Below the pieces are notes generated by a model. The model had not been told where the DNA came from. It saw only the letters and a program-made list of their open reading frames with translations, and ran no database searches. A stretch of 64,000 bases of DNA from Deltaproteobacteria bacterium (GTDB lineage Bacteria > Desulfobacterota > Binatia > UBA9968 > JAJDTQ01): NCBI GenBank assembly GCA_026712905.1, contig JAPOPM010000077.1, positions 1,413 through 65,412 of the forward strand, read 5' to 3'. Below are positions 2,937 to 62,373 of this stretch, in pieces (the stretch's first letter is position 1; each line of letters begins with the position of its first letter). Both the position numbers and the translations under genes were made by a program.

Positions 2937-3776
2937 ATGACGAAACCCTTCGCGCGGGCGTGGACGGCGGCCGGGGCGCTCTGGATGGCGGCATTGTTCT
3001 TGTCCGGGGCGGCTATGGCCCAGACCCGGCCCGCGGTCCCGGACGACCCGGCGTCACCGCTGTTGCGGCAGGGAACCATTGAGGAGCAGGATCTGACCGG
3101 CTCGGAACCGAAACCGGCACCGCCCGCCGGCGAGACCGTGTCCAAGACACCCGCCGTGACGGGAACGCCGACTTGGCCCGGGCCGGCAGCAAGAATCCCG
3201 GGCCGGGAGTCGGAGGGAGCGGCGGCGCCGCGCGCCGGCACCACGGCTCTCGCGCCGCGACGGGGGCCCGCCGTGCAGGCGCCGACCGTGCCCGCCACCG
3301 GGTCCGATGCCCCGTCGGACCGCGGCACCGGGGACTCCTACCCGCTCCCGGACCTGGCCGCGGTAGTGGGTTCCGGTGTGCCGCAGCGCGAGGCGTCGAT
3401 GAAGCTGTTGCAGCAGGGCCAGGCCCTTCTCCGGGCGGAGCGGCACGAAGCCGCGCTGGCGCGCTTCGAACAAGGCATCCGGGTGGACTCGAGCAATCCC
3501 TACAGCCATTACTTCGTTGCCCGCGCGCACTACTTCCTGGGCAACTATCGCGAGTCCCTGAACTTTCTCGAAGTTGCGGAATCGGGGCTGGCCGTGGATG
3601 ACAGGTGGCTCGCGGAGGTGTATGTCCTGCGCGCTCGCAGCGCCACCGCTCTCGGTTTCCACGCGCGCGCCGATCTCGACTACGTGCGCGCGCTGGAGAT
3701 CCAGCCGTTCCACGGCTACGCCCTGGCGCGCCTCACCACCATCGAACCCGCCGCGCGCGCGAACCGCACCCCCTGA
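2937..3776 (+). CDS. secreted TPR-repeat protein with Pro/Ala-rich linker
   Basis: N-terminal signal peptide (AAGALWMAALFLSGAAMAQ), low-complexity P/A/T region, C-terminal TPR-like helices (YFVARAHYFLGNYRESLNFLEVAE...). Confidence 0.55.
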   Translation: MTKPFARAWTAAGALWMAALFLSGAAMAQTRPAVPDDPASPLLRQGTIEEQDLTGSEPKPAPPAGETVSKTPAVTGTPTWPGPAARIPGRESEGAAAPRAGTTALAPRRGPAVQAPTVPATGSDAPSDRGTGDSYPLPDLAAVVGSGVPQREASMKLLQQGQALLRAERHEAALARFEQGIRVDSSNPYSHYFVARAHYFLGNYRESLNFLEVAESGLAVDDRWLAEVYVLRARSATALGFHARADLDYVRALEIQPFHGYALARLTTIEPAARANRTP

Positions 3777-3853: not shown

Positions 3854-4828
3854 TCACGGCGCGACGCCGGCGGTATCCGGCAGCTCGTAGTTCAACGTCA
3901 GGCGCACGGTCACGGGGTCCCCGGCGACGCTGCCGGGCATGGGGCCGAAGGGCGCGGATTCCCGAACGTTGCGCAACGCCTCCACGTCCAGCACGATGAA
4001 ACCCGACGACCTGGACAGCTTGACGCCTTCGACCTCCCCGTTCCCGTGCACGGCAAAGACCACGTCCACCGCGCCCTGCTGCCGTGTGCGCTTGGCGTAT
4101 TCCGGGTAGCGCGCGTTGCCGCCGATCTTCCGCCGCAGCGACTCGACGTAGGCCCGCTCGCGCGGGTTGCCCGGCTCTTCCCGGGGCTCGGTCCGGATCA
4201 CGCGGACGCCCTCGACCGGTGGAAGCTCGGGCGTTTCCTCACCCCGTTGCCGCCGCCGGATCCGCTCCACGGCCTGGTCGATGAGCACCAGCCGATCCGT
4301 CTCTTCCGTCCGCGGCGGTTCCACCGGCGATGGGCCGGTCCCGTCCCCGGAGCCGGCCGCGGCCGGCGCTTCGGCCACGGGCGTGGGCGGGGTGCGCGGC
4401 TTCGTGAAGAGGCGCGACAGCATGTCGATACGATCTCGCGCCAGCTTGGCGCCGGATCGATGGCCGAGCTCGGTGTAGACGCCCAGGACGCGGTAGTAGT
4501 CCCTCAATGCCTTCAGGGGCTCACCCTTGAGCAGACGCACCTCCGCCGTATTGTGGAGCGCCAGGGCCAGGGACAGGGTGCTCCCCGCCCCCTCGGCCAG
4601 CGACACCGCCTCGTCGAGCTGGCCCAGAGCTTCCACGTAGCGTTCGGCGCGGGCATTCCCTCGCGCCTCGACGATTTTTTCGTATGCCTGCTTTTCGAGA
4701 TCGGGCGCGGCGCCGTTGCCGGGCGCCGGACCGGTCTGCGCGTGCGCAAGGGTCGCCGCGGCCAAGAGCCACGCCAGCACAAGCCCCCGGCGGCACACTC
4801 GCAGTCCGTTCAACAGATGGCCGTTCAT
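3854..4828 (-). CDS. TonB C-terminal-domain protein with TPR-like N-terminal region
   Basis: Probable start MNGHLL... with signal/anchor RRGLVLAWLLAAATLAHA. Pro-rich spacer. C-terminal TonB_C block (YPEYAKRTRQQGAVDVVFAVHGNGEVEGVKLSRSSGF..LD.EALRNV). The upstream 44 codons of the track ORF are not trusted. Confidence 0.6.
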   Translation of the reverse strand: MNGHLLNGLRVCRRGLVLAWLLAAATLAHAQTGPAPGNGAAPDLEKQAYEKIVEARGNARAERYVEALGQLDEAVSLAEGAGSTLSLALALHNTAEVRLLKGEPLKALRDYYRVLGVYTELGHRSGAKLARDRIDMLSRLFTKPRTPPTPVAEAPAAAGSGDGTGPSPVEPPRTEETDRLVLIDQAVERIRRRQRGEETPELPPVEGVRVIRTEPREEPGNPRERAYVESLRRKIGGNARYPEYAKRTRQQGAVDVVFAVHGNGEVEGVKLSRSSGFIVLDVEALRNVRESAPFGPMPGSVAGDPVTVRLTLNYELPDTAGVAP

Positions 4829-4873
4829 GTCCTCGAAGCGGCGGCCGGGACACCCGGTGCCCTGGGCCGCGCT

Positions 4874-5036
4874 AGTGTCGTGTCCCGTAAATTCCTGGCA
4901 TAATTTGCTGGTCTTTTTCGCCGTCGGCTGCGTTGCTCTTCCTCGCGTGGTGCCCGCCACTGCTCGTCATCGCGCCTTGCCGACGACGAAATATCCTGCG
5001 CAACTTATGCCAGGAATTTACGGGACACGACACTAG
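4874..5036. repeat. MITE-like element: 32-bp perfect terminal inverted repeats (CTAGTGTCGTGTCCCGTAAATTCCTGGCATAA) flanking a 99-bp AT-richer core
   Basis: Left arm 4874-4905 is the exact reverse complement of right arm 5005-5036. The proC stop TAG lies inside the right-arm CTAG. Confidence 0.7.
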
Positions 5037-5851
5037 TGCTCGCCTCTCCCCAGGGCTTCCGAACGTTCCGCCGCCTGCAGCACCGCCTCCATGACGGTGG
5101 CACGAAAAGCGCCCTGTTCCAGGGCGAAAAGGCCGGCGGCCGTGGTCCCGGCCGGCGACGTGACGGCATCGCGCAACTCGGCGAGGTGTTCCTTGGATTC
5201 CCGTGCCATGACGGCGGAGCCGTAGACGGTTTGCAGCGCCAGCTTCAGGGCGACGTCCCGGCCGAGTCCCATCTGCACGCCGCCCGCGGTGAGCGCCTCG
5301 ATGAACAGGAAGACGTAGGCGGGGCCGCTGCCGCTCAAGGCGGTCACGGCGTCGAGATGATGCTCCTCCACGGTGACCGCGAGCCCCACGCTCGAAAGGA
5401 TCTGTCCCACCCGATCGAGGTCCTCGCTCCGCGCCCAGCGGCCCCCGGCGTACGCCGAGGCGGCCTCGCCCACGAGACAGGGCGTATTGGGCATGACCCG
5501 GACCACGCGCGTGCCCTCGGGCAGAAGCCCCTCGATACGCGCCAGCGGCACTCCGGCCGCGATGGACACCACCAGCTTGCCGTCCAGCGGGGTGCCGGCC
5601 AGTTCCTGCAACACCGCGTCGATGACCTGGGGCTTGACCGCGAGAATCACGATGTCCGACGAGTTCACCAACTCGACGTTGTCCTGGAGGAACCGGACGC
5701 CTGTTTCGTCGACCAGAGCCTTCCCCAACGCCTCGATGGGATCGCTCGCGGCCAACCGGTTCCGGTCCACCAGACCGGCGCGCAGGATTCCCTGGATGAT
5801 GGCGCTGCCCATCTTGCCGGCGCCGATGAAACCGATCCTGTCCTGGAGCAT
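5033..5851 (-). CDS. proC: pyrroline-5-carboxylate reductase
   Basis: 272 aa. N-terminal Rossmann motif IGFIGAGKMGSAI plus the conserved ProC C-terminal dimerisation region (TSPAGTTAAGL). Confidence 0.9.
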   Translation of the reverse strand: MLQDRIGFIGAGKMGSAIIQGILRAGLVDRNRLAASDPIEALGKALVDETGVRFLQDNVELVNSSDIVILAVKPQVIDAVLQELAGTPLDGKLVVSIAAGVPLARIEGLLPEGTRVVRVMPNTPCLVGEAASAYAGGRWARSEDLDRVGQILSSVGLAVTVEEHHLDAVTALSGSGPAYVFLFIEALTAGGVQMGLGRDVALKLALQTVYGSAVMARESKEHLAELRDAVTSPAGTTAAGLFALEQGAFRATVMEAVLQAAERSEALGRGEH

Positions 5852-13373: not shown

Positions 13374-13499
13374 GAGCCCCTCCCCGCGGCCGGCAATGAG
13401 CGGAGCACCCGCGCCGTCCGCACCGCCATCCTATAGGCGGAAACGGGCACGGTCAATACGGCCGCCGGGTGCTCGCAAGCCTGTCTGACAGGCAGGAGG

Positions 13500-14405
13500 C
13501 TAGACCCCTTCCGCGAGCATGTCGATGAAGAGCGGGTGATCGTTCACCGCGGGCACCCGATGGTACTCCATGCCCAGATCGAGCGCCTTCCGCCGGGCCT
13601 CCACGTCGAGGTCGTAGAGCACCTCAACGTGGTCGCAGACGAAACCGATGGGCACCACGATCACCGCCTTCTCGCCTGCCCGGGCGAGGTCCTCGATCGA
13701 ATCGCACACGTCGGGTTCGAGCCAGGGATCCCTGGGGTTGCCGCTGCGGCTCTGGTACGCCAGCGCCCAGCGCGCGCTCCCCACGGCCTCGGCCACCCGC
13801 CGCGAGGCGTCGGCGAACTGCTCCACGTAGGGGGAAGCGTCGGCCATGGACCGGGGAATGCTGTGGGCGGTAAACACCAGCGGGGCGCCGCGGGACGCCG
13901 GCGGCAGCCCTTCGAGTGTGGCGGTGACGCGGCCGGCCACCGCGCGAATGAACAGCGGATGGCCGGCCCAGGGTTCGGCGTACTCGACCACGGGAGCCCG
14001 TTGCCCCAGGGCCTCGCGCGCGGCCTCCACGCTGGCGATGTAGCGGTCCCAGGAGGCCTCGGTCCGGAAGGCGGAAAGAACGATGCCGCGCACGCGCCGG
14101 CGACCGTCGGCCGCGAGCGCCTCCAGGGTTTCGTCCAGGAACGGACGCCAGTTGCGCATGCCCACGTACACGGGTGTCGCGCGGCCGTCCCGCTGAAGCC
14201 GCTCGCGCAGCCCTTGCGCCTGGCGGCGCGTCAGGTCGTTCAACGGCGAGCGCCCGCCGATCTGCTCGTAGTGGCGCGCCACCTCTTCGAGGCGCGCCGG
14301 CGGAATGCCCCGCCCCTCGGTCACGCGCTCGAGGAACGGACGGATTTCGTCGGGATTCTCCGGGCCGCCGAAAGCGATCAGCAGGATCGCGTCGAAACGG
14401 TTCAT
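13500..14405 (-). CDS. hemH: ferrochelatase
   Basis: 301 aa. Conserved ferrochelatase blocks (LLIAFGGP, SAHSIP, VCDHVE). Confidence 0.9.
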   Translation of the reverse strand: MNRFDAILLIAFGGPENPDEIRPFLERVTEGRGIPPARLEEVARHYEQIGGRSPLNDLTRRQAQGLRERLQRDGRATPVYVGMRNWRPFLDETLEALAADGRRRVRGIVLSAFRTEASWDRYIASVEAAREALGQRAPVVEYAEPWAGHPLFIRAVAGRVTATLEGLPPASRGAPLVFTAHSIPRSMADASPYVEQFADASRRVAEAVGSARWALAYQSRSGNPRDPWLEPDVCDSIEDLARAGEKAVIVVPIGFVCDHVEVLYDLDVEARRKALDLGMEYHRVPAVNDHPLFIDMLAEGV

Positions 14406-16829: not shown

Positions 16830-19046
16830 ATGGATCTCAAGGTCGTAGGGCAACCGGTAGGACGCGTGGAGGGGCCGGACAAGGTTTCCGGGCGAATGGT
16901 GTACACGGCGGACGTGGACGTGCCGGAGGCGTTGTGGGGCAGGTGTTTGCGCAGCACCATGGCGCATGCCCGGCTGGCGCGCGTGGACGCGTCCCGGGCG
17001 CGGCAGGTGCCGGGGGTACGCGCGGTGCTGACGGGCGCCGACGTGCCCGATTTCCGCGTGGGCGTGAGCCTTCAGGACCTGCCCGTGCTGGCGCGCGACA
17101 AGGTGCGCTTCATCGGCGACAAGATCGCGGCGGTGGCGGCGGAGACGGCGGACGCGGCCGAACAGGCGCTGGCGCTCATCGAGGTGGAGTACGAGGAGCT
17201 GCCCGCGGTGGCCGGCATCGAGGAAGCCCTGGCCGACGGGGCGCCGGTGATCCACGAGGGGCTCGCGGACTACGCCGGCGTGCCCGGCCGCCCGGAGGAC
17301 CGGGCCAACGCCCTGTCCCTCAAGGAACACAGCGCCGGCGACGCGGCGCGCGCCATGGCGGACGCCGAGGTCGTGGTCGAGCACACCTTCCGCACGCCCG
17401 GGGTGCACCAAGTGTACCTGGAACCCCACGCCACCGTGGTATCGGCCGGAGACCCGGGCCGCATCGACGTGTGGGCGTCGTGCAAGGCGCCGTTCCGGCT
17501 CAAGCAGATGCTGGCCGCGCAACTGGAGCTGGACGAGGCGAACATCCACGTCCACGGCGTCGCCCTTGGCGGCGACTTCGGCGGCAAGGGCTCCCAGATG
17601 GACGTGCCGGTCTGCTACTACCTGTCCAGGGCCGCGGGGCGCCCGGTGAAGATGGTGATGAACTACACCGAGGAACTCATGGCCGGCGACCCGCGCCACC
17701 CCTCGGTGATGCGCGTCAAGCTCGGGGCCCGGCGCGACGGTACCCTGACGGCCCTGGACAGCGACATCTACTTCGACACCGGCGCCTACTCCGGCTTCAA
17801 GCCCTCGGAGATCGATGGCACCTTCATCGTCAACGCCTACCGCATCGCCGACTACGCCATCCGTACCTACAACGTCTACACCAACGGCGTGCCCGGCGGT
17901 TACATGAAGTCGCCGGGGCAGCCGCAGACGGTGTTCGCCATCGAGTCGCTGCTGGACATGCTGGCGCGGGAGCTGGACATGGACCCGGTGGCGCTGCGGC
18001 TCCAGAACCTGATGCAGGACGGCGACGAGCTGCCCAACAAGCGCGCCATGCAGAAGATCCGCTGCCGCGAGACCCTGGAGGCCGCGCTCGCGGCGGCGGG
18101 ATGGAACGACGCGCCCGCCGGCCCCGACACCGGCCGGGGCATGGCCCTCTCCTTCCGCCACACCGGCGGCAGCGGCACGGTCAACCTGGAGCTCACCTGC
18201 GACGCCGGCGGCGGGGTCACGGTGCTCACCGCCATCCCCGACATCGGCACGGGCACGCACACCCTGCTGCGCCAGATCACCGCCGAGATGCTGACCCTGC
18301 CGGCGGACCGCGTGCAGGTGGCGCGCGGCGACACCGACACCTTCGAGACCGACGCCGAGCCCGGCGGCAGCAAGATCACCGCCATGGTGGGGCGCGGCCT
18401 GGTGGAAGCGGTGCAGGAACTGCGCGACCGGATGACCGAGGCGGCCGCCCAGGCCCTCGCCTGCAAGCCCGACGCGGTCGCCCTGGCGGACGGCCTCTTC
18501 ACGGCCGGCGCCGCATCGCTGGCGTTCGCCGACGTGGCCGGAAAGCTCATCGCCGAGGAGAAGGCGCTGTCCGTGCGCAAGTCCTACCGTCCCGAGCGCT
18601 CGCCGGTGCCGGCTTTCTTCGTCCAGGTGGCGGAGGTGGCGGTGGACCGGGAGACCGGCACCGTGGACGTGAAGAAGGTGGTGACGGCCCACGACGTCGG
18701 CACCGTCATCAACCCCTTGGGGCACCAGGGACAGATCGACGGCGGCTTCGTGCAGGGCCTGGGTTACGCGGTGATGGAAGAGATGGTCAAGGACGGGCCA
18801 CGGGTCACGACCCTCAACCTCGGCGACTACTGCGTGCCGTGCGTCAAGGACCTGCCAGCGCTGGAGACCGTGCTGGTGGAGGACCAGACCGGTCCCGGTC
18901 CCTACAACGCCAAGGCCATCGGGGAAATGAGCATCGTGGCCACGGCGCCGGCCATCGCCAACGCGGTGGAAAACGCGGTGGGGGTGCGCATCCTGGACCT
19001 GCCCATCACCGCGGAGAAGGTGTACAACGCGTTGCAGGAGGGGTGA
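16830..19046 (+). CDS. xanthine dehydrogenase / aldehyde oxidase family molybdopterin-binding large subunit (CoxL/XdhA-like)
   Basis: Start MDLKVVGQ after AGGAGCAACC. a/b-hammerhead N-domain followed by MoCo-binding domains. No FeS or FAD subunit genes are adjacent. Confidence 0.85.
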   Translation: MDLKVVGQPVGRVEGPDKVSGRMVYTADVDVPEALWGRCLRSTMAHARLARVDASRARQVPGVRAVLTGADVPDFRVGVSLQDLPVLARDKVRFIGDKIAAVAAETADAAEQALALIEVEYEELPAVAGIEEALADGAPVIHEGLADYAGVPGRPEDRANALSLKEHSAGDAARAMADAEVVVEHTFRTPGVHQVYLEPHATVVSAGDPGRIDVWASCKAPFRLKQMLAAQLELDEANIHVHGVALGGDFGGKGSQMDVPVCYYLSRAAGRPVKMVMNYTEELMAGDPRHPSVMRVKLGARRDGTLTALDSDIYFDTGAYSGFKPSEIDGTFIVNAYRIADYAIRTYNVYTNGVPGGYMKSPGQPQTVFAIESLLDMLARELDMDPVALRLQNLMQDGDELPNKRAMQKIRCRETLEAALAAAGWNDAPAGPDTGRGMALSFRHTGGSGTVNLELTCDAGGGVTVLTAIPDIGTGTHTLLRQITAEMLTLPADRVQVARGDTDTFETDAEPGGSKITAMVGRGLVEAVQELRDRMTEAAAQALACKPDAVALADGLFTAGAASLAFADVAGKLIAEEKALSVRKSYRPERSPVPAFFVQVAEVAVDRETGTVDVKKVVTAHDVGTVINPLGHQGQIDGGFVQGLGYAVMEEMVKDGPRVTTLNLGDYCVPCVKDLPALETVLVEDQTGPGPYNAKAIGEMSIVATAPAIANAVENAVGVRILDLPITAEKVYNALQEG

Positions 19047-19059
19047 ACGGCCTCCGGCC

Positions 19060-19160
19060 CCGCCCCGCCTGGATTCCCGCTTCCGCGGGAATGACGTTTC
19101 GGGGGCACCGTTGCCTCGGGAGTATGGACACAGCCGCTTCCGCGGGAATGACGGTGTCGT
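19060..19160. repeat. REP-like palindromic elements (ATTCCCGC-GGAA-GCGGGAAT hairpin family), one full copy and one half copy
   Basis: CCTGGATTCCCGCTTCCGCGGGAATGACG at 19069-19097, partial copy at 19134-19153. Same family as the clusters at 58.2 and 63.4 kb. Confidence 0.8.
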
Positions 19161-19184
19161 GGCGAGTCTCCGCCGCCGTTTCCC

Positions 19185-19832
19185 CTACGACTTGGGCCAG
19201 GACGTGATCCGCGACTCCGGGCGCAGCTTGTCCCGGTCGTAGGTTTCCCAGTGGACGAAGTCGTCTACCTTGCGGCGCGGCTTGGGTTTGGGCCAGGCGC
19301 GCGGGAGCCCCACGGGCATCACCCATAGCAGGCGCAGCGGGCGCGGCACCTCGAACAGCGCGCGCAGCTCCGGCTCCACCTCCTTGCGCACCGAGACCCA
19401 CACCGTGCCGAAGCCCATGCTCGCCGCCGCCAGCATCATGTGCTCCACCGCGTTGGCCACGTTGGCCTGGAAGAGCTTCTCACGGTCCGAGGGCTGACGC
19501 GTGGTGAGGTAGACCCGGCGGGTGCGGGCGTCGCCGCACACCAGGACCAGGGCGCTCACGTCGCCCACGTAGTCCTTCTTGAGCCCCTTGTAGTTCACCG
19601 GATCCTCGAGCTTGCGCTGGTTCCACTCGGCGGAATAGATCGCCCGGACCTTGCGCATCTTCGCCCGGTCCCGGGTCACGATGAACTCCCACGGTTGGCT
19701 GTTGGCTCCGGACGGTGCGAGCCGGGCCGCCTCGAACATGAGCCGTAGCTGCTCGTCCGTCACCCGCCCGCTCTTGTAAACGCGCACGCTGCGGCGCGCC
19801 GCCATCACATCCAGCAGTCCATGTGTGTCCAT
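19185..19832 (-). CDS. nitroreductase-family protein
   Basis: Start MDTHGLLDVMAARRSVR (GGAGG SD). Typical nitroreductase N-terminus (RRS.R.Y) and FMN-binding fold. Confidence 0.75.
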   Translation of the reverse strand: MDTHGLLDVMAARRSVRVYKSGRVTDEQLRLMFEAARLAPSGANSQPWEFIVTRDRAKMRKVRAIYSAEWNQRKLEDPVNYKGLKKDYVGDVSALVLVCGDARTRRVYLTTRQPSDREKLFQANVANAVEHMMLAAASMGFGTVWVSVRKEVEPELRALFEVPRPLRLLWVMPVGLPRAWPKPKPRRKVDDFVHWETYDRDKLRPESRITSWPKS

Positions 19833-19939
19833 CGTTGCCTCCCTTCTCTCCGCGCCTGTCGACACGACTGCCTGCCGACACCACTTCCAAACACAAGATG
19901 GCATCCTTGACTACCCTGTGGTACTTCTGCCGCAGGACC

Positions 19940-20791
19940 ATGATCAACGTCGTCGGAATCGTTGCGAAGTACGGAGAGGAGAAGGCCGAGAAGATCATGC
20001 GCGGGACCATTCCGTGGCTGGAGGGCCGCGGCATGGAGGTGCTCGTGGAGGCCGAGTTCGGCACCGCGGGCGGCAGCGTCGCGCGCAAGGAGGAAATGGC
20101 CGAACGCGCCGACCTGATCGTCGTCCTGGGCGGAGACGGCACGCTCCTGAGCATCGCCCGCCTGGTGGAACGGCCCGAGGTGCCCATCGTCGGGGTCAAC
20201 CTCGGGGGCCTCGGCTACATCACCGAGATCGCGTTGGACGAGCTCGAAGAGGTGCTCGCCAGCACCATCGCGGAGAACTACACCATCGAGAAACGCATGA
20301 CCTTGCAGGTCAGCATTTCGGGCAAGGACGGCGTACAGCACCTCCGTATCCTCAACGACGCTGTCATCACCAAGGGCGCCCGCTCCAAGATCATCGACCT
20401 GGAGACCTACGTCGGCAGTGATTACCTGTGCACGTACCGGGCCGACGGTCTCATCATCTCCACGCCCACGGGATCGACCGCGTATTCGCTGGCGGCCGGC
20501 GGCCCGATTCTTCACCCGGCCATGAGCGCCATCATCCTCTGTCCCATCTGTCCGCACACGCTGACCACCAACCGGCCCATCGTCATCGCCAGCGACGCCC
20601 GTATCCGGTCGACCCTGAGGTCCTCCGGGGACACCGTCATCCTGATCCCCGACGGCCAGGAAGGCATACTCCTGAACAACGGCGACCGCGTGGAGGTGCG
20701 CCGGCACAAGTCGCCGGTGTCGCTGGTACGCCTCCCGACGCGGTCGTACTTCGACGTGCTGCGCAACAAGCTCAAGTGGGGAGAGCGCTAG
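19940..20791 (+). CDS. nadK: NAD(+) kinase
   Basis: GGDGT motif and the NadK C-terminal beta-sandwich. Start MINVVGIV chosen; MASLTT at 19898 is the alternative. Confidence 0.85.
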   Translation: MINVVGIVAKYGEEKAEKIMRGTIPWLEGRGMEVLVEAEFGTAGGSVARKEEMAERADLIVVLGGDGTLLSIARLVERPEVPIVGVNLGGLGYITEIALDELEEVLASTIAENYTIEKRMTLQVSISGKDGVQHLRILNDAVITKGARSKIIDLETYVGSDYLCTYRADGLIISTPTGSTAYSLAAGGPILHPAMSAIILCPICPHTLTTNRPIVIASDARIRSTLRSSGDTVILIPDGQEGILLNNGDRVEVRRHKSPVSLVRLPTRSYFDVLRNKLKWGER

Positions 20792-20827
20792 TGTCCTGTC
20801 TGGTTGATTAACCAGACAGGACACTAG
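20788..20827. terminator. 18-bp-stem palindrome CTAGTGTCCTGTCTGGTT-gatt-AACCAGACAGGACACTAG between nadK and recN (terminator/attenuator or REP)
   Basis: Perfect inverted repeat. The nadK stop TAG is part of the left CTAG. Member of the CTAGTGTC motif family. Confidence 0.5.
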
Positions 20828-20856
20828 CGTGACGCGTCGCACTGGCGGTCGCATCC

Positions 20857-22566
20857 ATGCTGCAGCAGCTTCGCATCCGCAACATCGCCGTCATCGACCA
20901 GGCCGAGCTGGAGCTTGGGCTTGGGCTGAACGTGCTCACGGGCGAGACGGGCGCCGGCAAGACCATGGTCCTCGCCGCCTTGAACCTCATCCTCGGAGGC
21001 CGGGCGTCGTCCGACCTGATCCGCGAAGGCGAAACCGAGGCCACCGTGGAGGCCCTGTTCGGAGACCTGCCCGCGCCCACGCGCGGCGCCCTCGAGGCGG
21101 CCGGCTGCGGAGACGACGACGAACTGGTGCTGAAGAGAGTCGTGAACCGCGGGGGCCGCGGCCGCATCTATCTCAACGGCAGCCTGGCCTCGCGCTCGCT
21201 CCTGTCCGAAATCGCCCCCGGCCTCATCCACATCTACGGACAACACGAGCAGCACACGCTGCTGCGCACCGAAACCCACCTCGCCCTGCTCGACGCCCAC
21301 GGCGGCCTCGAGCACAAGGCCGCCGCCATGAGGGAGCGCTTCACGGCGTTCGCGGACGCCTGGCGACGGGTGTGCGATCTCCGGGAGAAGCTCGCGGACG
21401 CGGCTCGGGAAGAAGCCTTCCTGCGTGCCCAGGCGGATGAGATCGAAGACGCGAGGCTCGAACCCGGCGAAGAGGATGCCCTGCTCGACAGGCGCCGGCT
21501 GATCGTCCATTCCGAGAAGCTCTACCAGACCTGCAAGGAAGGCGAGAGCCTCCTCTACGAGGATGACAACGCCGTGGTGGGAGCGCTGGGACGGTTCCTC
21601 CCGCGCCTCCGTGACATGGCGGAGATCGACGGCACGCTGTCCGAGGCGGTGACGCTGCTGGAAGGATCGGTGGCGCAACTCGATGAGGCCGCGGCAGCAA
21701 TCCGCCAGTATGCGGACCGGCTGCATTTCGACCCGCGGGAGCTGGAACGGCTCGAAGACCGTCTGGCCGAGATCAACCGGCTGAGGCGAAAATACCGCGC
21801 GTCGGTGGAAGAGATCCTGGCGCTGGCCGAACGGGCGAGGGAAGAGCTCACGGCCATCGACCGCGGCGAGGAGAGTCTGGCCGCGCTGACGCGGGAGTTC
21901 GAGGCGGCCCGGGATGCCGCGTGGAAACTGGCGGAGGAACTGTCGCGCCTGCGCAGGCGCGCGGCCAAGACGCTCCAGCGCCGCATGGAGCAGGAAACCG
22001 CCCAGATAGGACTGCCCAACACGACCTTCGAGGTGCGTTTTCGCGCGCGCGCCGACACCCGCGACCAGCCGCCGTTCGTGATGGGAGACAGGCGCATCGG
22101 GCCGGACGGGGTCGACGACATCGAGTTCTTCTTCTCGCCGAACCCGGGCCACGAGGTCCGGCCCCTCGCCAGGATCGCCTCGGGCGGCGAACTGTCGCGC
22201 CTCATGCTGGCGCTCAAGTCCGTCGTGTTGAGCGGGAGCGAGATCCCCACCCTGCTGTTCGACGAGGTGGATGCCGGCATCGGCGGAGGCGTGGCCGAGA
22301 TGGTGGGCCGCAAGCTCGCCACCGTGGCGCAGTCCCGCCAGGTGATCTGCGTGACCCACCTCGCCCCCATCGCTGCCCTGGCGCGCTCTCACTACGTGGT
22401 GGAGAAGACCGTCGATCGGGGCCGCACCTTCACCACGGTACGGAAGCTCGAAGAGGCGGAGCGCGTGCGCGAGCTGGCACGGATGCTGGCGGGCGTGGAG
22501 GTGACCGCGCAGGCGGAACGGCATGCCGCCGAGATGCTCAAGGTCGACCAGCCCGGCCGGACGTAG
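20857..22566 (+). CDS. recN: DNA repair protein RecN
   Basis: 569 aa. Walker A GETGAGKT, long coiled coil and C-terminal SMC-like signature. Conserved nadK-recN synteny. Confidence 0.9.
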   Translation: MLQQLRIRNIAVIDQAELELGLGLNVLTGETGAGKTMVLAALNLILGGRASSDLIREGETEATVEALFGDLPAPTRGALEAAGCGDDDELVLKRVVNRGGRGRIYLNGSLASRSLLSEIAPGLIHIYGQHEQHTLLRTETHLALLDAHGGLEHKAAAMRERFTAFADAWRRVCDLREKLADAAREEAFLRAQADEIEDARLEPGEEDALLDRRRLIVHSEKLYQTCKEGESLLYEDDNAVVGALGRFLPRLRDMAEIDGTLSEAVTLLEGSVAQLDEAAAAIRQYADRLHFDPRELERLEDRLAEINRLRRKYRASVEEILALAERAREELTAIDRGEESLAALTREFEAARDAAWKLAEELSRLRRRAAKTLQRRMEQETAQIGLPNTTFEVRFRARADTRDQPPFVMGDRRIGPDGVDDIEFFFSPNPGHEVRPLARIASGGELSRLMLALKSVVLSGSEIPTLLFDEVDAGIGGGVAEMVGRKLATVAQSRQVICVTHLAPIAALARSHYVVEKTVDRGRTFTTVRKLEEAERVRELARMLAGVEVTAQAERHAAEMLKVDQPGRT

Positions 22567-22690
22567 CGCGCCGCGCCCGAGCCCGCCAACGCATCCCCCT
22601 TGCCTCGCGGCCCGCGTATCGGTTATGCTTGTCATCCAACCGGCGGTCGAAGATCCTGCGGGATCCGTACCGCCCAAGTTTCCGAGCGTG

Positions 22691-22766
<76 letters not shown>

Positions 22767-46846: not shown

Positions 46847-48172
46847 GTTTCAAAGGCTTCCGAAGAACTCCTCCATATCGTGACGCGCAAGATCTTCTAC
46901 GGCTGGTACATCGTCGGCGTCGGCTTCATTTGCTACCTTGGCTCTTCCTTTGCCCTTTCCAGCACCCTCAGCGTCTTTCTCAAGCCCCTGACCACGGAGT
47001 TCGGGATCTCCCGGGGCATGTTCTCGTTCATCCGCAGCGGCGAGGTCATGCTGTCCTCGGTGGTGGCCGCCCTGGTCGGACCCCTCATCGACCGTTACGG
47101 GGCACGCTGGCTCATCATCACGGGCGCGCTGGTGGGAGGGGCGGGCTTCGTCCTGCTGAGCCAGGTGCAACAGTTCTGGCAGTTCATGGTCATACGCTGG
47201 CTACCGGTCACCATGGGCGACACCCTCATCAGCTACATGGTGGTCAACGTGATGATCTCGCGCTGGTTCGTGCGCAGGCGCGGCCGCGCCATCTCCATCG
47301 CCAACACCGGCAACGGCATCGCCAAGTCGACCATGCCGCTCCTCGCCGTGTGGCTCTTCGCGCTGGTGGGGTGGCGCCACACCTGGCTCGTTTTCGGTCT
47401 CCTCACCTGGGCGATGGTCGTGCTGCCCGCGTTCCTGATGGTCCGGCGCAGTCCCGAGGACATGGGGCTTCTGCCGGACGGCGCCTTCGCCCCTTACGAG
47501 CCTTCCCGCGGGCGGACACCGGAACGGCAGAGCCCGCCGGCGCCGTCCGTGGACATCCCGTGGACGCGCAAGGAAGCCGTCCACACCAGCACCTTCTGGC
47601 TGCTGGTCCTCTCCTTCGGCATCGTCAGCGTCGGCATCATCGGGTTGAACCTCCACGTCTATCCCTACATCACGGACATCGGCTACTCGCCCGAGGTGGC
47701 CGCGACGGTCATGGGCATGATGGCCTTGACGCAGATGGGAGCGACGCTGTTCTGGGGCCTCACCGCGGACCGCATCGACGTGCGCAAGGCAGCCTTCGCC
47801 CAATTCGTGGTGCAGGCGTGCGGACTGGGCCTGGCAATGTCCGCCGGGGGCATCACCGCGGTGTACCTGGGGTTCCTCCTGTACGGGTTCGGCCTCGGGG
47901 GAAGCTTGGTGATCCGCGAGCTCCTGTGGGCCAGCTACTTCGGCCGCATCTCGCTAGGGCGGGTGCGCGGACTGGGCTTCCTGATCACGCGCGTGTTCAC
48001 CACCGCCGGCCCCCCCTTCTTCGGCTTTTTCTACGACTACACGGGCAGCTACTTCCTGTCCTTCAGCTCCTTCATCGCCGGCCTGCTGGTCTCGGCGTTC
48101 CTGGTCCTGCTGCTGCGCCCTCCGCGGAAACCCGGATCGGCGCCGGACGCCCCGGACGCGGCAGCACCGTGA
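46847..48172 (+). CDS. MFS transporter (paralog 1 of a tandem array)
   Basis: FYGWYIVG...SSTLSVFLKP...MRRSPEDMGLLPDG family blocks shared with paralogs 3 and 4. Start codon uncertain (GTG 46881 or the upstream TTG). Confidence 0.7.
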   Translation, partial: VSKASEELLHIVTRKIFYGWYIVGVGFICYLGSSFALSSTLSVFLKPLTTEFGISRGMFSFIRSGEVMLSSVVAALVGPLIDRYGARWLIITGALVGGAGFVLLSQVQQFWQFMVIRWLPVTMGDTLISYMVVNVMISRWFVRRRGRAISIANTGNGIAKSTMPLLAVWLFALVGWRHTWLVFGLLTWAMVVLPAFLMVRRSPEDMGLLPDGAFAPYEPSRGRTPERQSPPAPSVDIPWTRKEAVHTSTFWLLVLSFGIVSVGIIGLNLHVYPYITDIGYSPEVAATVMGMMALTQMGATLFWGLTADRIDVRKAAFAQFVVQACGLGLAMSAGGITAVYLGFLLYGFGLGGSLVIRELLWASYFGRISLGRVRGLGFLITRVFTTAGPPFFGFFYDYTGSYFLSFSSFIAGLLVSAFLVLLLRPPRKPGSAPDAPDAAAP

Positions 48173-48180
48173 GAGCCTTC

Positions 48181-49431
48181 ATGCTGCGGAAACCCGACCC
48201 ATCCTGGATCGTCGCAGGCGCCGCCTCATTGACCTTCGGCTTCGTCCGCGGCCTGCACACGTCCTTCGCCGTCTTTTTCGTGGCGCTCCTCGATACGTTC
48301 CAGTGGAGCCGCGGGGTGACCGCCGGGCTTCAGTCCGCGAGCCTGATCATGGATGCCCTGGTGTCGCCCTTCATCGGACGGCTCACCGACCGCCTGGGGC
48401 CGCGGCGGGTCGTGGCCGCGGGCGGCGTCCTCCTGGCTGTGGGCCTGGTCCTCTGCAGCCAGGTGAGCACCCCCTGGGAGCTCTATCTCTACTTCGGGGT
48501 GGTGATGTCGCTGGGGTTCGCGGCCAGCGGCGTGGTGCCCCACGTGCTGGTGGTGGCGGACTGGTTTCCCACGCGCCGGGGACTGGTGCTGGGCATCGTC
48601 TACGGAGCCGTGGGAGTGGGAACCCTCATCCTTTCGCCCCTGAGCCAGTGGCTGATCTCCCTGTGGGGCTGGCCGCGGGTGTTCCAGGCGCTGGCGGCGG
48701 CCATCCTCATCGCCGTGGTGCCGCTGGTGTGGAGCACCTACCGCCCCAGCCCCCACGACGCGCATACGCCGGCGGGAAGCGGCGGCGGCACCCCGGCCGG
48801 CCAGTGGTCGGTGCGCCTGGCGTTGAGGAGCATCCAGTTCTGGAGCCTGTTCATCTCGCGGCTGTTGGGTTCCGTCGGCACGGTGCTGGTCATTACCCAT
48901 CAGGTCGCCCACGTGGTGGACATCGGGTATGGCCACATCTGGGCCGCCGGCGTCTTCGGCGTGATGGCGTTCGTCAGCGCCGCCGGCCGGGTGACCTTCG
49001 GCTACATCGCCGACGCCTTCACCAAGCGGGCGGCCTACACCCTCAACATCGTGTGCGCGGCGGTCGGCGTCACGGCCCTCACCCTGGCCACGGACACGGC
49101 GCAACCTTGGCTGCTTTACGTTTACGTCGGCGGCTTCGGCATCGCCTTCGGCTCCCGCGCCGTGATCCTCTCGGCGATCACCGCCGACATCTTCGCCGGC
49201 CGGGGCTTCGGCACCATCTTCGGCCTCTCGGTGGCGAGCGTGGGATTCGGCGGCGCCACCGGCGCGTGGCTGGGCGGTGCGCTGCACGATCTCACGGGCG
49301 ACTACGCCGCCTCGTTCAACGTCGCCAACGGGCTCCTGATCTCCTCGGTGGTGGCGGTCTGGATCACCGGCCTCGACTGGATGCGCCGTTTCGACCAGCG
49401 ACTGTGGGCGGACAGCCCCCCGGGCACCTGA
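48181..49431 (+). CDS. MFS transporter (paralog 2, distinct subfamily)
   Basis: ATG at 48181, 9 nt after the paralog-1 stop. About 12 TM helices. Confidence 0.75.
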   Translation: MLRKPDPSWIVAGAASLTFGFVRGLHTSFAVFFVALLDTFQWSRGVTAGLQSASLIMDALVSPFIGRLTDRLGPRRVVAAGGVLLAVGLVLCSQVSTPWELYLYFGVVMSLGFAASGVVPHVLVVADWFPTRRGLVLGIVYGAVGVGTLILSPLSQWLISLWGWPRVFQALAAAILIAVVPLVWSTYRPSPHDAHTPAGSGGGTPAGQWSVRLALRSIQFWSLFISRLLGSVGTVLVITHQVAHVVDIGYGHIWAAGVFGVMAFVSAAGRVTFGYIADAFTKRAAYTLNIVCAAVGVTALTLATDTAQPWLLYVYVGGFGIAFGSRAVILSAITADIFAGRGFGTIFGLSVASVGFGGATGAWLGGALHDLTGDYAASFNVANGLLISSVVAVWITGLDWMRRFDQRLWADSPPGT

Positions 49432-49578
49432 AGCGGTGATTGACTCCGGGGAGGCGATTGCCTAGTAAACTCCCTTGAGCCACCCGCGCCCGCGCCGGCC
49501 AATGCCGCATTGGCCACTGCCGCACCGGCCGCTGTCGCACCGGCCATTTCACGCACGCCGAGGAAAGATGCATGCACC

Positions 49579-55381: not shown

Positions 55382-55812
55382 CTACGGCCAGTAGGTCTTC
55401 CCCTTGCGGTCGGTGACGAACAGCTCGGAAGGAAGTTCGACGCCGATTCCCTGCCTGCGGGCGGCTTCGTAGAGGATGCGGGCGGTGGCGGCGAACTGGA
55501 TGCCCATGCCGGTGTTGTTCTTGAAGACGATGATCTCGTCGTCGTTCTCGCGGCCGCGGCACTGGCCGGTCAGCAGCTCGCCGGGTTCGTGCAGGTCCTC
55601 TTCCTTGATGAGGTCGCGCTCGATGCGGGGGAACAGCGCGGCCTGCTTGTCGAGGAAGACCTGCCTGCGGAAGCCCACCACGATGAGATCGGCGCGCTCG
55701 ATCACGGCGTCGTCCAACTCGTGGCGGGCGAGGTAGCTGTCGCCGCCCACGATGCTGTTGACGAAGGCGCCCTTGTCCAGCCACTCGCCGTTGATGACCG
55801 GGTCCACGGTGT
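55382..55812 (-). pseudogene. 3'-terminal fragment (about 143 codons) of an ornithine cyclodeaminase / mu-crystallin gene, duplicated from 57110-57541
   Basis: About 95% nucleotide identity to the 3' end of the intact gene, including the stop codon. Homology ends abruptly at 55812; the upstream in-frame extension runs antisense into the Sel1 gene. Confidence 0.6.
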
Positions 55813-55950
55813 TGTTCGTGCGGTTGTTCGTCGCTGACGCATTGGACACGGCTGCCGATACCGCAAGGGGAGTCGGTCGACAGTTTGCATCCCTCCCGCA
55901 GGAGGGATGCAAACACAATAGGCATTCACCGAATGTTCGGAAAACCGAGG

Positions 55951-58460: not shown

Positions 58461-58480
58461 CTTGAAACGTCGGCGCAAAC

Positions 58481-60874
58481 TCAGCCGTCGGCCGGCCGTA
58501 CCCTGCAGAGGGACGACCGGTGCGGCAGCGAGCCGCTGATGGGGTCGCGGTGCTCCGCGTCCACGAGCCCGTTGGGGTTGGCACCGAGCTCGCTGAAGGG
58601 ATCGTGGCCCGGAAGCTCCAATTCCCGGCAGGGCTGCCACCAGCCGTGCTGCAGGCACACCACCCCCGGAATGATCCGCGCGGTCAGGTTCGCCCGCACC
58701 TTGACCGCGCCCTTCGGGCTCTCCACCACCATCCATTGCTTGTGCTCGACGCCGTGCTTTTCTGCCGTATCCGGGTGGAGCTCGGCGCTTGGCTCCGGCG
58801 CCGCTTTGCGCAGGCTCGGCAGCGTCCGGTGCTGGCTGTGGACGAACGTCGTGAACTTGGCGTTGGTGAGGACCAGTGGATACTCGGCGGCGACGTCCGG
58901 CCTGCTCGTGGGGCTCACCGCCGGCTCCTGGTATTCCGGCAGCGGCGGGAACCCGTGCCGCGCCATGCGGTGCGAGTAGATCTCCACCCTGCCGGACGGA
59001 TTGTTGAAGCCCTTCGGGCGGCCCTCTCCGTCGGCATCCGCGTATTTCCGGTACCGCCGGGGGCTCTCCAGGGTCACGCCGCCCGGGTGCGCCTTGAGTT
59101 CCCCCAGGGTCATGCCGGTGGGCTCGAGCTGGTAGGCAAAGGCCGCCTCCACGTCGCCGCCCCAGAAATCGTCGGCGAAGCCCATGCGCTTGGCCAGCTC
59201 GAACACCACCCGGGTGTCCGAGCGCCGCTCCGCCAGGGGCTCCACGGCCTTCGGCCGGTACTGGACGTGGGTGCGGGCATCCACGCGGTGGCGGAACCCG
59301 CCGCAGAGGTGATCCATCTCCAGGAAGCTCGTGGCCGGCAGCACGTAGTCGCAGAGCTGGGCCGTGGGCGTCATGAACAACTCGGTGGCCACCCCCAGAT
59401 CCAGGGCGCTCAAGGCGTCCCGACCGCGTGCCGGGTCTCCGTTGGAAAGCACGGTGTTGGAGCCCAGGTTGATCAAGGCCCGGACCGGATACGGTCTGTC
59501 CTCGAGGATGGCGGTGTAGACGTCGTGGGCGGCGCACGCGCCCACGGTTGCCGGCGGACCCAGCGGTTTCTCGTCGCGGCCGATACGCTTGGCCGCGGCC
59601 TCGGCGGGGAGGAACTCCTTGCCGTCCAGCCCGCGAAGCGGCGCCATGGGCAGCATCAGGTTACCCCCGGGCGCGTCGATGTCACCCAGCAACGCGTAGA
59701 GGATGGAAACGGCCCGGCTGGTCTGGCTCGCGTTGGTATGCTGTCCGATGCCGTTCCACATGAACATGCTCACCGGCCGGCTATCGCCGAGGACGCGGGC
59801 CGCCTCGCGGACCTTCTCCGCGGGGACCCGGGTGACGCCCTCGGACCGTTCCGGCGCGTGGGTCGACGCGAGCCGCGCCAGGGCGGCGAACGCCGGCTCG
59901 CACGAATGCGTGGCGCCGTCCCGACCGGTCACGCTGAAGGTTCCCGACAGCGCCGGACGCACGTTGTCTTCCGTAGCCACCGGAGACCTCGGATCGCAGG
60001 CCGCCGCCCGCTCCGACGTCTCGTCCCAGATCATGTAGCGGTCCGGGCTGCCTCCGGCCGCCACGTCCGCCTCGGTCAAAGCCTCTCCGGTGTCCGTGCG
60101 CAGCAGGAACGGGCCGTTCGTCCAGTCGCGCACGAAGGCCTCGTCGTACCGTCCCTCCTCGATCATGACGTGGACGAGGGCCAGGGCCAGCGCCCCGTCG
60201 GCGCCCGGGCGCACCTGCAGCAGGACATCCGCCTGGCTGCCGAGGCCGACCCGGCGCGGATCCACCACGACGATCTTCATGCCGCGCTTGCGCGCGGTGA
60301 CGACGTCCTGGGCCAGCATCAATTGCGTGGAACTCGGGTTGTGGCCCCACAGGAGAAAGGCGCCGCTGTGAAGCACGTCCGGCGACGGCTGCGGCACGCC
60401 GAACGTGTAACTGAACACGGTATCCTTGTGCCAGTTGCAGACGTGGGTGGTGGAGAGAGCGTTGGGACTGCCGATGCGGTTGAGCAGGCGCGTGGACCAT
60501 TGGCTCACGTCGTCCACCGAGGTGCCGCTGGCGGTGCCCCGGGCCATGACGATGGCCTCGGCGCCGTAGCGCTCGCGAATGTTCAGCAGGCGCGCCGCGA
60601 TGTCGTCCAGGGCCTCGTCCCAGCTCACGCGCTGCCAGCCCGGATCCGCCGCTCCCTTGGGGTTGGTGCGCCGCAAGGGATAGTCCAGGCGCTCCCCGTT
60701 GTAGACCAACTCCGGGGCGGCCTTGCCCTTGACGCAGATGGCGCCGCCGTTGGGATGGTCGTAGTCGGGGTCGAGACGCGTCACGCGTCCGTCCTCCACC
60801 GTGGCGACGGTGGCGCAGTGGGCGGTGCACAGCACACAATAGCCCCGGACCTTCTCGATTTGTGGTTCCGTCAC
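58481..60874 (-). CDS. molybdopterin-dependent oxidoreductase (DMSO-reductase/formate-dehydrogenase superfamily catalytic subunit) with N-terminal 4Fe-4S motif
   Basis: GTG start 5 nt after AGGAG (VTEPQIEKVRGYCVLCTAHC = C-x2-C-x3-C). Molybdopterin oxidoreductase and molydop-binding domains. Confidence 0.75.
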   Translation of the reverse strand: MTEPQIEKVRGYCVLCTAHCATVATVEDGRVTRLDPDYDHPNGGAICVKGKAAPELVYNGERLDYPLRRTNPKGAADPGWQRVSWDEALDDIAARLLNIRERYGAEAIVMARGTASGTSVDDVSQWSTRLLNRIGSPNALSTTHVCNWHKDTVFSYTFGVPQPSPDVLHSGAFLLWGHNPSSTQLMLAQDVVTARKRGMKIVVVDPRRVGLGSQADVLLQVRPGADGALALALVHVMIEEGRYDEAFVRDWTNGPFLLRTDTGEALTEADVAAGGSPDRYMIWDETSERAAACDPRSPVATEDNVRPALSGTFSVTGRDGATHSCEPAFAALARLASTHAPERSEGVTRVPAEKVREAARVLGDSRPVSMFMWNGIGQHTNASQTSRAVSILYALLGDIDAPGGNLMLPMAPLRGLDGKEFLPAEAAAKRIGRDEKPLGPPATVGACAAHDVYTAILEDRPYPVRALINLGSNTVLSNGDPARGRDALSALDLGVATELFMTPTAQLCDYVLPATSFLEMDHLCGGFRHRVDARTHVQYRPKAVEPLAERRSDTRVVFELAKRMGFADDFWGGDVEAAFAYQLEPTGMTLGELKAHPGGVTLESPRRYRKYADADGEGRPKGFNNPSGRVEIYSHRMARHGFPPLPEYQEPAVSPTSRPDVAAEYPLVLTNAKFTTFVHSQHRTLPSLRKAAPEPSAELHPDTAEKHGVEHKQWMVVESPKGAVKVRANLTARIIPGVVCLQHGWWQPCRELELPGHDPFSELGANPNGLVDAEHRDPISGSLPHRSSLCRVRPADG

Positions 60875-60882: not shown

Positions 60883-60901
60883 CTAGTGTCGTGTCCACTA
60901 G
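60883..60901. repeat. CTAGTG-tcgtgtc-CACTAG palindrome between the FAD-protein stop and the Mo-enzyme start
   Basis: Shares the 14-mer CTAGTGTCGTGTCC with the MITE-like element at 4874. The stop TAG of the upstream gene is inside the palindrome. Confidence 0.6.
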
Positions 60902-62373
60902 TCCCGGTTGGGAATGCCGACGAACCCGTCGCCCCAGCCCGCCTCCTGCGCCGCCCAGCCACCGGCCACCCGGCCGCTGAAGATGGACGGCCCGAGCATG
61001 GTCCCCTCCAGGCCCGCGCGGCCGTTGATGTGGCCGCCCGCCATGCCCGCCACCTCGCCGGCGGCGTAAAGGCCCGGAATCGGCTCGAAGTGCTTGTTCA
61101 GCGCGCGGCAGCGGATGTCGGTCTTGACCCCGCCGAAGTTCTTGCGCGCCAGCGGGAAGATCTGGATCGCGTAGTACGGCGCCGTGTCGAACTTCTTGGA
61201 GAGCTTGAGCGGCTTGCCGAACTCCGGCTCCTTGTCGAGCCCCTGCTCGCACGCCTGGTTGTAGCGCTCCACGTTGTCGAGGAAGGTGGGAACGTCCACC
61301 TCCATGCGCCGGGCCAATTCCTCCAGGGAGTCCGCCTTCTTGATGAACGGCGAGTTGTCCAGCAACCCCTGCACCTTGTCCCGGTCCACCTTGTCGCCGG
61401 CGCGGTAATAGGGGTCGGCGATCTCCAGCTTGGCGGTCATGGGCGTGTCCACCACCGCCCAGGCGTGCCGCGGCTCCTGGGCCATGAGCGCGGGCGTCGC
61501 CGAGTTGCCGCCCGACAACGCCTCGTTGTGGAAGCGCCGGCCCTGCTGGTTGATCCAAATGTAGCCGGGCGCCTGTCGGAAGACCAGGCCGCGCCGCTCA
61601 CCGGGATCGCGATAGTCCGGCGTGGCGTAGACATAGAACCAGATGTGGTCCATGTGGGTGAGGTAGCCGCCCGCCTGCCGCACCAGCCGGTGGCCGGTTC
61701 CTGTGGAGCCCCGGCCCGAGCCCTCCATGACCCGCTCGCCCTTGAGCCTGGGGTTGGCCTCCAGCACCATGTCGATGTTGGAGTTGAACCCGCCGGTGGC
61801 CACCACCACCACCTTGCTGTCCACGCGCACCTCGTCGCCCGTCGACGCGTCCTTGCCCACGAAGCCGGTGACCCGGCCGTTGTCGCGCTTGAGCTCGACG
61901 ATCTCGGTGTTGGACACGATCTCGCCGCCGCGTTCGCGAAAGGCCTGGATGAGATGCGTCATCAGGCCCAGGCCGCTGCTCTCGGCCCGGGTCCAGCGCA
62001 ACACCGTGTTGCCTTCCTGCTGCTTCATGTCCACCCACTTGACGCCCATGCGCTCGGCCCAAAAGTAGAGGTCATGAAGCGAATGCTCGATGTAGTAGCG
62101 CGCCCACACCTCGTCGGCCGAGGGCCCGCCCCACTTGATCCAGTCGTTGAAGGCCAGGTCCGGCGTGTCGATGATGCCGTTGGCCTTCTGGATCGGCGTA
62201 CCCACGATGAGGCAGCCGCCGCCGGAGATGATGGCGGCGCCGCCCAGGTCCGCCGCCTTCTCGAAGGCGATGGCGCTGGCGCCGGCGTCCCGGGCCTCGA
62301 TGCCCGCGGCCATCCCGGCCCCACCGGACCCGATGATGGCGACATCCGTGGAGAAATGCTTGGTCTGTGACAT
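60898..62373 (-). CDS. FAD-dependent oxidoreductase (FAD_binding_2; fumarate-reductase/KstD-like flavoprotein)
   Basis: N-terminal DVAIIGSGGAGMAAG dinucleotide fold. Flavoprotein family blocks throughout. Confidence 0.8.
   Translation of the reverse strand: MSQTKHFSTDVAIIGSGGAGMAAGIEARDAGASAIAFEKAADLGGAAIISGGGCLIVGTPIQKANGIIDTPDLAFNDWIKWGGPSADEVWARYYIEHSLHDLYFWAERMGVKWVDMKQQEGNTVLRWTRAESSGLGLMTHLIQAFRERGGEIVSNTEIVELKRDNGRVTGFVGKDASTGDEVRVDSKVVVVATGGFNSNIDMVLEANPRLKGERVMEGSGRGSTGTGHRLVRQAGGYLTHMDHIWFYVYATPDYRDPGERRGLVFRQAPGYIWINQQGRRFHNEALSGGNSATPALMAQEPRHAWAVVDTPMTAKLEIADPYYRAGDKVDRDKVQGLLDNSPFIKKADSLEELARRMEVDVPTFLDNVERYNQACEQGLDKEPEFGKPLKLSKKFDTAPYYAIQIFPLARKNFGGVKTDIRCRALNKHFEPIPGLYAAGEVAGMAGGHINGRAGLEGTMLGPSIFSGRVAGGWAAQEAGWGDGFVGIPNRD

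Follow-up and report, generated by a model that had tools for sequence, protein, structure and literature searches.

The 64,000-nt stretch of DNA analysed here (the window; contig JAPOPM010000077.1 of assembly GCA_026712905.1, from a member of the class Binatia, with a G+C content of 66%) carries three short palindromic features that lie exactly on the stop codons of nadK, proC and a gene for an FAD-dependent oxidoreductase. Very probably, all three are non-autonomous forms derived from a single IS630-family, IS870-like insertion sequence (IS), namely a 165-bp miniature inverted-repeat transposable element (MITE), a 40-bp element made of two ends, and a 19-bp remnant. The original prediction for these loci had offered two options, a conserved intercistronic RNA structure or operator and a very short palindrome that is mobile and prefers CTAG targets; it is the second that proved essentially right. 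In other words, we are dealing with a mobile element of an ordinary kind, in a bacterial group that has received little study, and not with a regulatory signal conserved at these sites.

The motif that defines the features, CTAGTGTC(G/C)TGTC, was searched as CTAGTGTCSTGTC and has five matches in the window, at 4872(+), 5036(-), 20788(+), 20827(-) and 60883(+), compared with 0.11 expected by chance; none of 100 dinucleotide-preserving shuffles reaches five. Positions 5036, 20788 and 60883 had been given correctly before, whereas the site placed at 4874 actually lies at 4872. The five matches make up the three elements (165, 40 and 19 bp), and all three read C-TA-[G...C]-TA-G. The tetranucleotide CTAG is itself scarce, with 22 occurrences against the 68 expected from a second-order Markov model, and the ends of the three elements account for six of the 22. 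A short-word BLAST search of the window with seven family members as queries revealed no further or decayed copies.

The smallest complete element is the 40-bp palindrome between nadK and recN, in which the predicted 18-bp stem is found together with a 4-nt loop, GATT. It consists of two complete 22-nt terminal repeats of the IS630 type that overlap in the central four nucleotides, (A/G)ATT; each arm is at most two mismatches from the family end consensus, and a 49-bp element from an Azotimanducaceae genome (L114) matches the two arms exactly over 21 and 20 nt. The RNA fold of 20770-20870 has a predicted energy of -57.3 kcal/mol (z = -6.7). The 165-bp MITE has terminal inverted repeats of ~37-40 nt (inverted repeat I5: 40 nt, 95% complementary), a predicted fold of -131.9 kcal/mol (z = -10.3), and 165-bp relatives that are 83-89% identical to it at a dozen further loci, most of them titled Binatia. 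The third element, CTAGTGTCGTGTCCACTAG, i.e. C-TA-GTGTCGTGTCCAC-TA-G, has the 6-bp stem described before and shares an exact 14-mer with the 165-bp MITE, also as described. Its composition is TA + GTGTCGTGTC(C) + (C)AC + TA: 10-11 nt of one end remain, joined to the final 2-3 nt of the other, and 1 nt may be microhomology. The simplest origin would be a copy of the 165-bp subfamily that underwent an internal deletion or abortive gap repair.

Where else do such ends occur? The 22-nt end pattern CTAGTGTCNTGTCNNGTNNATT was scanned over one genome per species and matched at least 120 stretches; the pattern demanded CTAG at one end, and the partner end was located without that requirement. All family-wide counts given here (pairs, size classes and stop overlaps) are counts among the matches listed. 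The ends are found in Binatia, Pseudomonadales/Azotimanducaceae, Woeseiaceae, Solirubrobacterales, Variovorax, Acidovorax, Akkermansia, Opitutales and others. Paired ends fall into short size classes of 40 (the window element, the smallest), 49, 52, 59, 64, 90, 164-165 and 188-189 bp and longer ones of 267-270, 285-288, 510 and 1138-1229 bp, and mini-elements of 49-64 bp that consist only of two ends are present in Woeseiaceae, Azotimanducaceae, Pseudomonadales and Binatia. The 1138-1229-bp class holds one reading frame of about 325-372 aa. Two of these long copies were tested, and both match the NCBIfam profile NF033545, 'IS630 family transposase', at 268 and 263 bits (cut-off, 100 bits), with helix-turn-helix and DDE_3 domains; plasmid relatives of the long form carry an IS630 family annotation. 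The end of the 165-bp MITE matches the full-length IS ends over ~30 nt. The window elements have no transposase coding capacity, and from the ends that they have in common with transposase-encoding IS630 elements we therefore classify them as non-autonomous IS630 derivatives, i.e. MITEs. When two of the transposases were used as tblastn queries, full copies were matched in non-Binatia loci only, and both the current mobility of the window elements and their cognate enzyme must be regarded as putative.

The full-length copies also connect the family to a known subgroup. In eight of nine full copies, the frame reaches the last bases of the element, ATC AAC GGG ACA GGA CAC / TA G, which translates as ...INGTGH*; because the frame runs to these last bases, the stop codon of the transposase is made from the duplicated TA and the G of the target. 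The transposase frame of IS870 likewise ends on a target-made TAG, as Fournier 1993 is cited for in PMC13630536 and PMC6471742. The resemblance to the IS630/IS870 subgroup of the IS630-Tc1-mariner superfamily thus includes full copies of ~1.14-1.23 kb with the same ends, the two tested ones matching the IS630 equivalog model, a CTAG target with TA duplication, and a transposase that lacks its own stop and uses the target-made TAG (PMC13630536). The difference is that the window elements are transposase-free, at 165, 40 and 19 bp, and that no autonomous partner was seen in the available Binatia sequence. Since the 22-nt end doubles as the code for the transposase C-terminus, this double duty may help explain the conservation of the end across phyla.

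The flanks of the elements bear on how they arrived. ISY100, an IS630-related element, moves by cut and paste almost exclusively into TA, which is duplicated; 30 bp of each end are enough for its transposition, and its 24-bp inverted repeats were considered the likely minimum (PMC2170065). According to the title of a paper cited there (Tenzen & Ohtsubo 1991), the TA in 5'-CTAG-3' is the preferred target of a transposon associated with IS630. In our family, 47 of 51 pairs also have a C before the partner end. The remaining four depart from this on a single side, with ATAG, TTAG or CTAA there (L037, ATAG/CTAG; L012, TTAG/CTAG; L035; L002), and such asymmetric flanks seem to fit a TA duplication in a non-CTAG target better than a 4-bp duplication, which is disfavoured at these four pairs because the flanks are not direct repeats. 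The same observation weighs on the proposal that the elements are IS5-family MITEs with a CTAG target and a 4-bp duplication, as proposed for MITEPsy1 and ISPsy2. CTAG does stand on both flanks, and there is precedent for IS5-type MITEs inserting at CTAG or YTAA (PMC3189936), MITEPsy1 of Pseudomonas syringae among them, but the asymmetric pairs lack 4-bp direct repeats, and full-length elements with the exact same ends encode IS630-family transposases. MITEPsy1 differs in precisely these respects, i.e. its 4-bp duplication and its resemblance to the IS5 family, as opposed to the IS630-family ends in the window, and we consider an IS5 origin highly improbable.

If these sequences are derivatives of an IS630-family element, then orthologous junctions should sometimes be free of them, and they are. 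In relatives whose proteins are 61-91% identical, nadK and recN are separated by TAG or TAA, 7-21 nt and ATG; the shortest such junction (L121) reads ...gagcgg TAG gacgccg ATG, other relatives have 11-21 nt, and several of the upstream genes end in TAG. The 40-bp palindrome is in none of seven related nadK-recN junctions, which have 7-21-nt spacers or a different insert. That different insert is a palindrome of ~100 bp (GTAGCGTCCTTCGACTTCGCTACGCTACGCTCAGGACGAACGG...) directly after the nadK TAG in two loci (L122/L123, ~3350-3460) whose NadK is 91% identical, so that a second, different palindromic element has independently inserted at the nadK-recN junction. At the FAD/Mo-enzyme junction, five orthologous loci (85-91% identity, L136-L140) have TGA and 36-75 nt, with no CTAG motif. 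The converse is seen in a relative, the Candidatus Binatia genome OX638375.1 (L083), to which the window is ~81% identical across some 7 kb: a 165-bp copy at 2431-2595 stands immediately after the TAG stop of a gene (TAG CTAG...), and the syntenic site in the window (~46134) is a 30-nt spacer with no element. We joined the flanks of 41 elements by a single CTAG and compared these predicted empty sites by BLAST with all fetched DNA; the junction was spanned only at nadK-recN, where the joined flanks align straight across the L121 junction at 80% identity, and at the L083 site, which is spanned by the window. These presence/absence differences at orthologous sites, in a dispersed multi-copy family, are those of a MITE.

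How, then, does the regulatory option fare? It would hold that the palindromes are conserved cis-acting intercistronic RNA hairpins (for processing, attenuation or mRNA stabilisation), or a palindromic operator, selected at these operon junctions. The predicted folds are indeed very stable, and all three elements sit between co-oriented genes. Moreover, the arms of the larger family members covary. In an alignment of 18 copies of 165 or 189 bp (A1; window 4872-5036 and 17 copies from loci in the range L003-L115), the terminal 22 nt are near-invariant, positions ~23-36 are variable yet mutually complementary, and a core of ~90 nt is almost invariant; the 189-bp subfamily is the 165-bp form with a 24-nt G+C-rich hairpin insert. 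Changes in both partners are seen at 14 stem pairs; shuffling gives 7.9 ± 1.4 such pairs, with 14 never reached in 500 shuffles, and slid controls yield at most three. This covariation is, however, also expected if one transposase recognises both ends; it would be compatible with that and with selection for a DNA or RNA hairpin alike. The elements are missing from the same junctions in relatives, the same ends appear in unrelated contexts and on transposase-bearing elements, the region 20600-21000 holds no T-run or terminator-like site, and Rfam gave no match at threshold, only generic hairpin matches far below it. A conserved regulatory structure, as first suggested, is thus improbable. As an observation on the alignment itself, the ~90-nt core is almost invariant although coding DNA is ~81% identical in the sole comparison, that of the window with L083.

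An IS630-family origin also offers an account of the position on stop codons. The earlier claim that the upstream gene ends on the TAG contained in the terminal CTAG holds at all three window loci, and the check that it had called for, motif position relative to stop codons, was made across the family loci. In high-G+C loci, 25 of 125 element ends fall on a gene-like stop, defined by an open reading frame (ORF) and its G+C content at third codon positions (GC3), whereas the remaining CTAG sites of the same loci do so in 44 of 488 readings (odds ratio 2.5, p = 0.0013). With a second, stricter gene caller, the figures are 18 of 120 ends and 34 of 518 other readings (odds ratio 2.5, p = 0.005). 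Of the 28 small elements located in high-G+C loci, 11 extend over a stop codon, and several more elements in lower-G+C loci terminate ORFs of >240 codons. Unoccupied CTAG sites in the window are gene stops in 4 of 16 cases, hemH included. The three of three seen in the window is the upper tail of a real tendency, which involves roughly 35-45% of copies. The association is probably explained by the scarcity of CTAG, selection against intragenic insertion, and preservation of the stop.

The steps envisaged are as follows. The transposase would excise the element and insert it at a TA with a strong preference for 5'-CTAG-3', duplicating the TA, as has been shown elsewhere for the family. Because the element begins with G and ends with C, C-TA-G is rebuilt on both flanks, the arrangement displayed by the elements here. 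Because of this rebuilding, a host gene whose stop is the target TAG retains its stop, on either strand, as a direct consequence of the sequence. With CTAG depleted ~3-fold and intragenic insertions presumably counterselected, C+TAG stops would form a large share of the tolerated targets, and it is for this reason that elements would be found exactly at gene boundaries. Once in place, they would add a strong hairpin between cistrons in the transcript; any regulatory effect of these hairpins would be a by-product, and a secondary effect of the 18-bp stem between nadK and recN is possible.

Several points weigh against this assignment. By tblastn, there is no transposase gene in the window or in any fetched Binatia locus. 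CTAG is palindromic, so duplications of TA and of 4 bp are formally inseparable at the three window sites. No precise empty site was found at near-identical sequence, the closest nadK relative for this purpose having an 88% identical protein, and both of the spanning sites are too diverged to follow the duplication base by base. The enrichment on stop codons depends on crude ORF/GC3 gene calls. Nothing comparable to the 19-bp remnant was found in the other loci, where only unrelated 20-mers turned up, in Akkermansia. Additionally, the stop of the FAD gene is TGA at the same codon in five of five orthologs and TAG in the window, and the spacer to the Mo-enzyme gene is 23 nt in the window compared with 36-75 nt in the five orthologs; the remnant may have supplied the stop of the FAD gene after a local deletion, not landed on an existing TAG.

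Other known families of short repeats deserve comparison. Repetitive extragenic palindromes and bacterial interspersed mosaic elements (REP/BIME) are spread by REP-associated tyrosine transposases (RAYTs), which are IS200/IS605-like (PMC2817692), and at 20-40 bp these short intergenic palindromes are comparable to the 40-bp element, whose size, perfect palindrome and intergenic position resemble those of REPs. IS200/IS605 elements, however, are without terminal inverted repeats or larger target duplications, and tabulated REPs start with GT[AG]G (PMC2817692), whereas the window elements have TA/CTAG on both flanks, a head of CTAGTGTC, and ends that match the terminal inverted repeats of DDE transposons of the IS630 family; another repeat family in the window, described below, looks more REP-like. 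Spread by a RAYT is exceedingly improbable. RUP of pneumococcus, a 107-bp MITE derived from IS630-Spn1, is a closer likeness, being non-coding and intergenic with IS630-type terminal repeats and TA insertion (PMC2229807); it belongs to another sequence family and host, its reported targets are IS elements, not CTAG stop codons, and mini forms consisting only of two ends are not described in that source. The Correia elements of Neisseria are listed as IS630-derived MITEs (PMC2817692) and, like the elements here, have inverted repeats, as well as being co-transcribed with neighbouring genes and folding into hairpins in Neisseria (PMC2229807). Their ends are unrelated, they measure 107-155 bp and have sites for integration host factor, and processing by RNase III is known for them.

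The IS630-family assignment has several consequences. Palindromes at stop/start boundaries are explained by known transposition chemistry, a CTAG/TA target combined with G...C ends, and a false regulatory annotation is averted. A MITE family is documented in the uncultured class Binatia; a literature search for Binatota and transposase returned one paper in which both words occur, on marine plasmid-borne biosynthetic gene clusters. An annotator could take derivatives that consist only of two ends, down to 40 bp and in several phyla, for REP elements, operators or terminators. As a marker, the 22-nt end allows such elements to be masked in metagenome-assembled genomes, and it also flags operon junctions where translational coupling is possibly disturbed. 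A bolder hypothesis, which we consider unlikely but worth stating, is that this IS630 subgroup evolved its G...C termini specifically to let itself and its two-end derivatives of 40-60 bp use host TAG stops as a safe harbour, with REP-like hairpins then being selected and modulating operon expression. For example, the tight coupling between nadK and recN may have been broken, with a spacer that is 65 nt long and contains an 18-bp stem in place of the 7-21 nt of relatives. Arm covariation beyond the transposase-binding region, the near-invariant ~90-nt core and the FAD stop seemingly supplied by the remnant would fit this hypothesis.

Table 1. Positions in the window of the IS630-type elements, the genes beside them and the unrelated 28-nt repeats.
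Feature	Coordinates	Strand	Details
165-bp MITE	4872..5036		element proper 4875-5033; TA within CTAG on both flanks
40-bp mini-element	20788..20827		element proper 20791-20824; TA 20789-90 and TA 20825-26 inside CTAG...CTAG
19-bp remnant	60883..60901		between two CTAG
TonB-like gene	3854..4828	-	Pfam TonB_C; probable ATG 4828
proC	5033..5851	-	Pfam P5CR_dimer, F420_oxidored; TAG stop 5035..5033 in right CTAG (5033-5036) of the 165-bp MITE
nadK	19823..20791	+	Pfam NAD_kinase, NAD_kinase_C; stop TAG 20789-20791 = TAG of left CTAG
recN	20857..22566	+	Pfam match; ATG 20857
Molybdopterin oxidoreductase, N-terminal part	59781..60874	-	GTG 60874
FAD-dependent oxidoreductase	60898..62373	-	TAG stop 60900..60898 in right CTAG (60898-60901) of the 19-bp remnant
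28-nt repeat CGTCATTCCCGCGGAAGCGGGAATCCAG	19069-19096	-	
28-nt repeat CGTCATTCCCGCGGAAGCGGGAATCCAG	58288-58315	+	
28-nt repeat CGTCATTCCCGCGGAAGCGGGAATCCAG	58362-58389	-	
28-nt repeat CGTCATTCCCGCGGAAGCGGGAATCCAG	63346-63373	+	
28-nt repeat CGTCATTCCCGCGGAAGCGGGAATCCAG	63417-63444	-	

Gene identities in the window (Table 1) come from Pfam and reading frames, and the gene names given in the original prediction are supported by Pfam. Its statement that the next gene begins 8-30 nt after the palindrome is borne out at two of three loci, at recN (29 nt), where the N-terminus, MLQQLRI, aligns with those of orthologs, and at the Mo-enzyme gene (8 nt), and fails at the TonB-like gene, which starts 43 nt beyond the 165-bp MITE; this start was picked for its signal-peptide-like N-terminus and is probable. 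The Shine-Dalgarno sequence and GTG start that had been noted next to the remnant are both there, with AGGAG overlapping its left CTAG. The Mo-enzyme gene itself, a molybdopterin oxidoreductase at 58481-60874 (-), is split across two reading frames: the frame 59781-60874 has an Fe4S4 domain and Molybdopterin positions 1-190, and Molybdopterin positions 190-353 lie together with Molydop_binding in the frame 58481-59989. In orthologs, the enzyme is encoded by a single gene (798-799 aa), and the split reflects a frameshift, pseudogene formation or an error of assembly. Just downstream of recN lies a tRNA gene (22690-22762, +), the sole Rfam match in the window at the gathering threshold.

A fourth hairpin, at 13480, had been put forward as related to the three elements. 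The palindrome, CCTGTCTGACAGG, exists, 7 nt downstream of the ferrochelatase gene hemH (13500-14405, -), whose stop is an unoccupied CTAG, but its kinship with the family is not supported: the two have only an 8-mer in common. We rejected it (13480-13503) as a family member, given that its 13-mer is single-copy and at least one match arises in 17 of 100 shuffles.

The window also contains a second, unrelated repeat family, represented by five identical 28-mers, CGTCATTCCCGCGGAAGCGGGAATCCAG, in three clusters and in alternating orientation, with partial copies within 19041-19164, 58204-58467 and 63338-63578. The 28-mer is one base off the consensus of the Neisseria NTS/dRS3 repeats, CGTCATTCCCGCGMAVGCGGGAATCYRG, which are the target of the GIY-YIG single-strand nuclease Ssn (PMC11893778). 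None of the seven neighbouring ORFs tested near these repeats has a GIY-YIG domain. Similar copies occur in other Binatia loci.

Two further duplications were seen. The window holds two copies, 1728 nt apart and 96% identical over 300 nt, of a C-terminal fragment of an ornithine cyclodeaminase/mu-crystallin gene, and the two ornithine cyclodeaminase copies (55382-56083 and 57110-58282, both -) flank a Sel1-repeat gene (55885-57033, +). At 46895-52034, there are three tandem paralogous segments, 63-75% identical and with spacings of 2726 and 1301 nt, in a region that is syntenic with L083.

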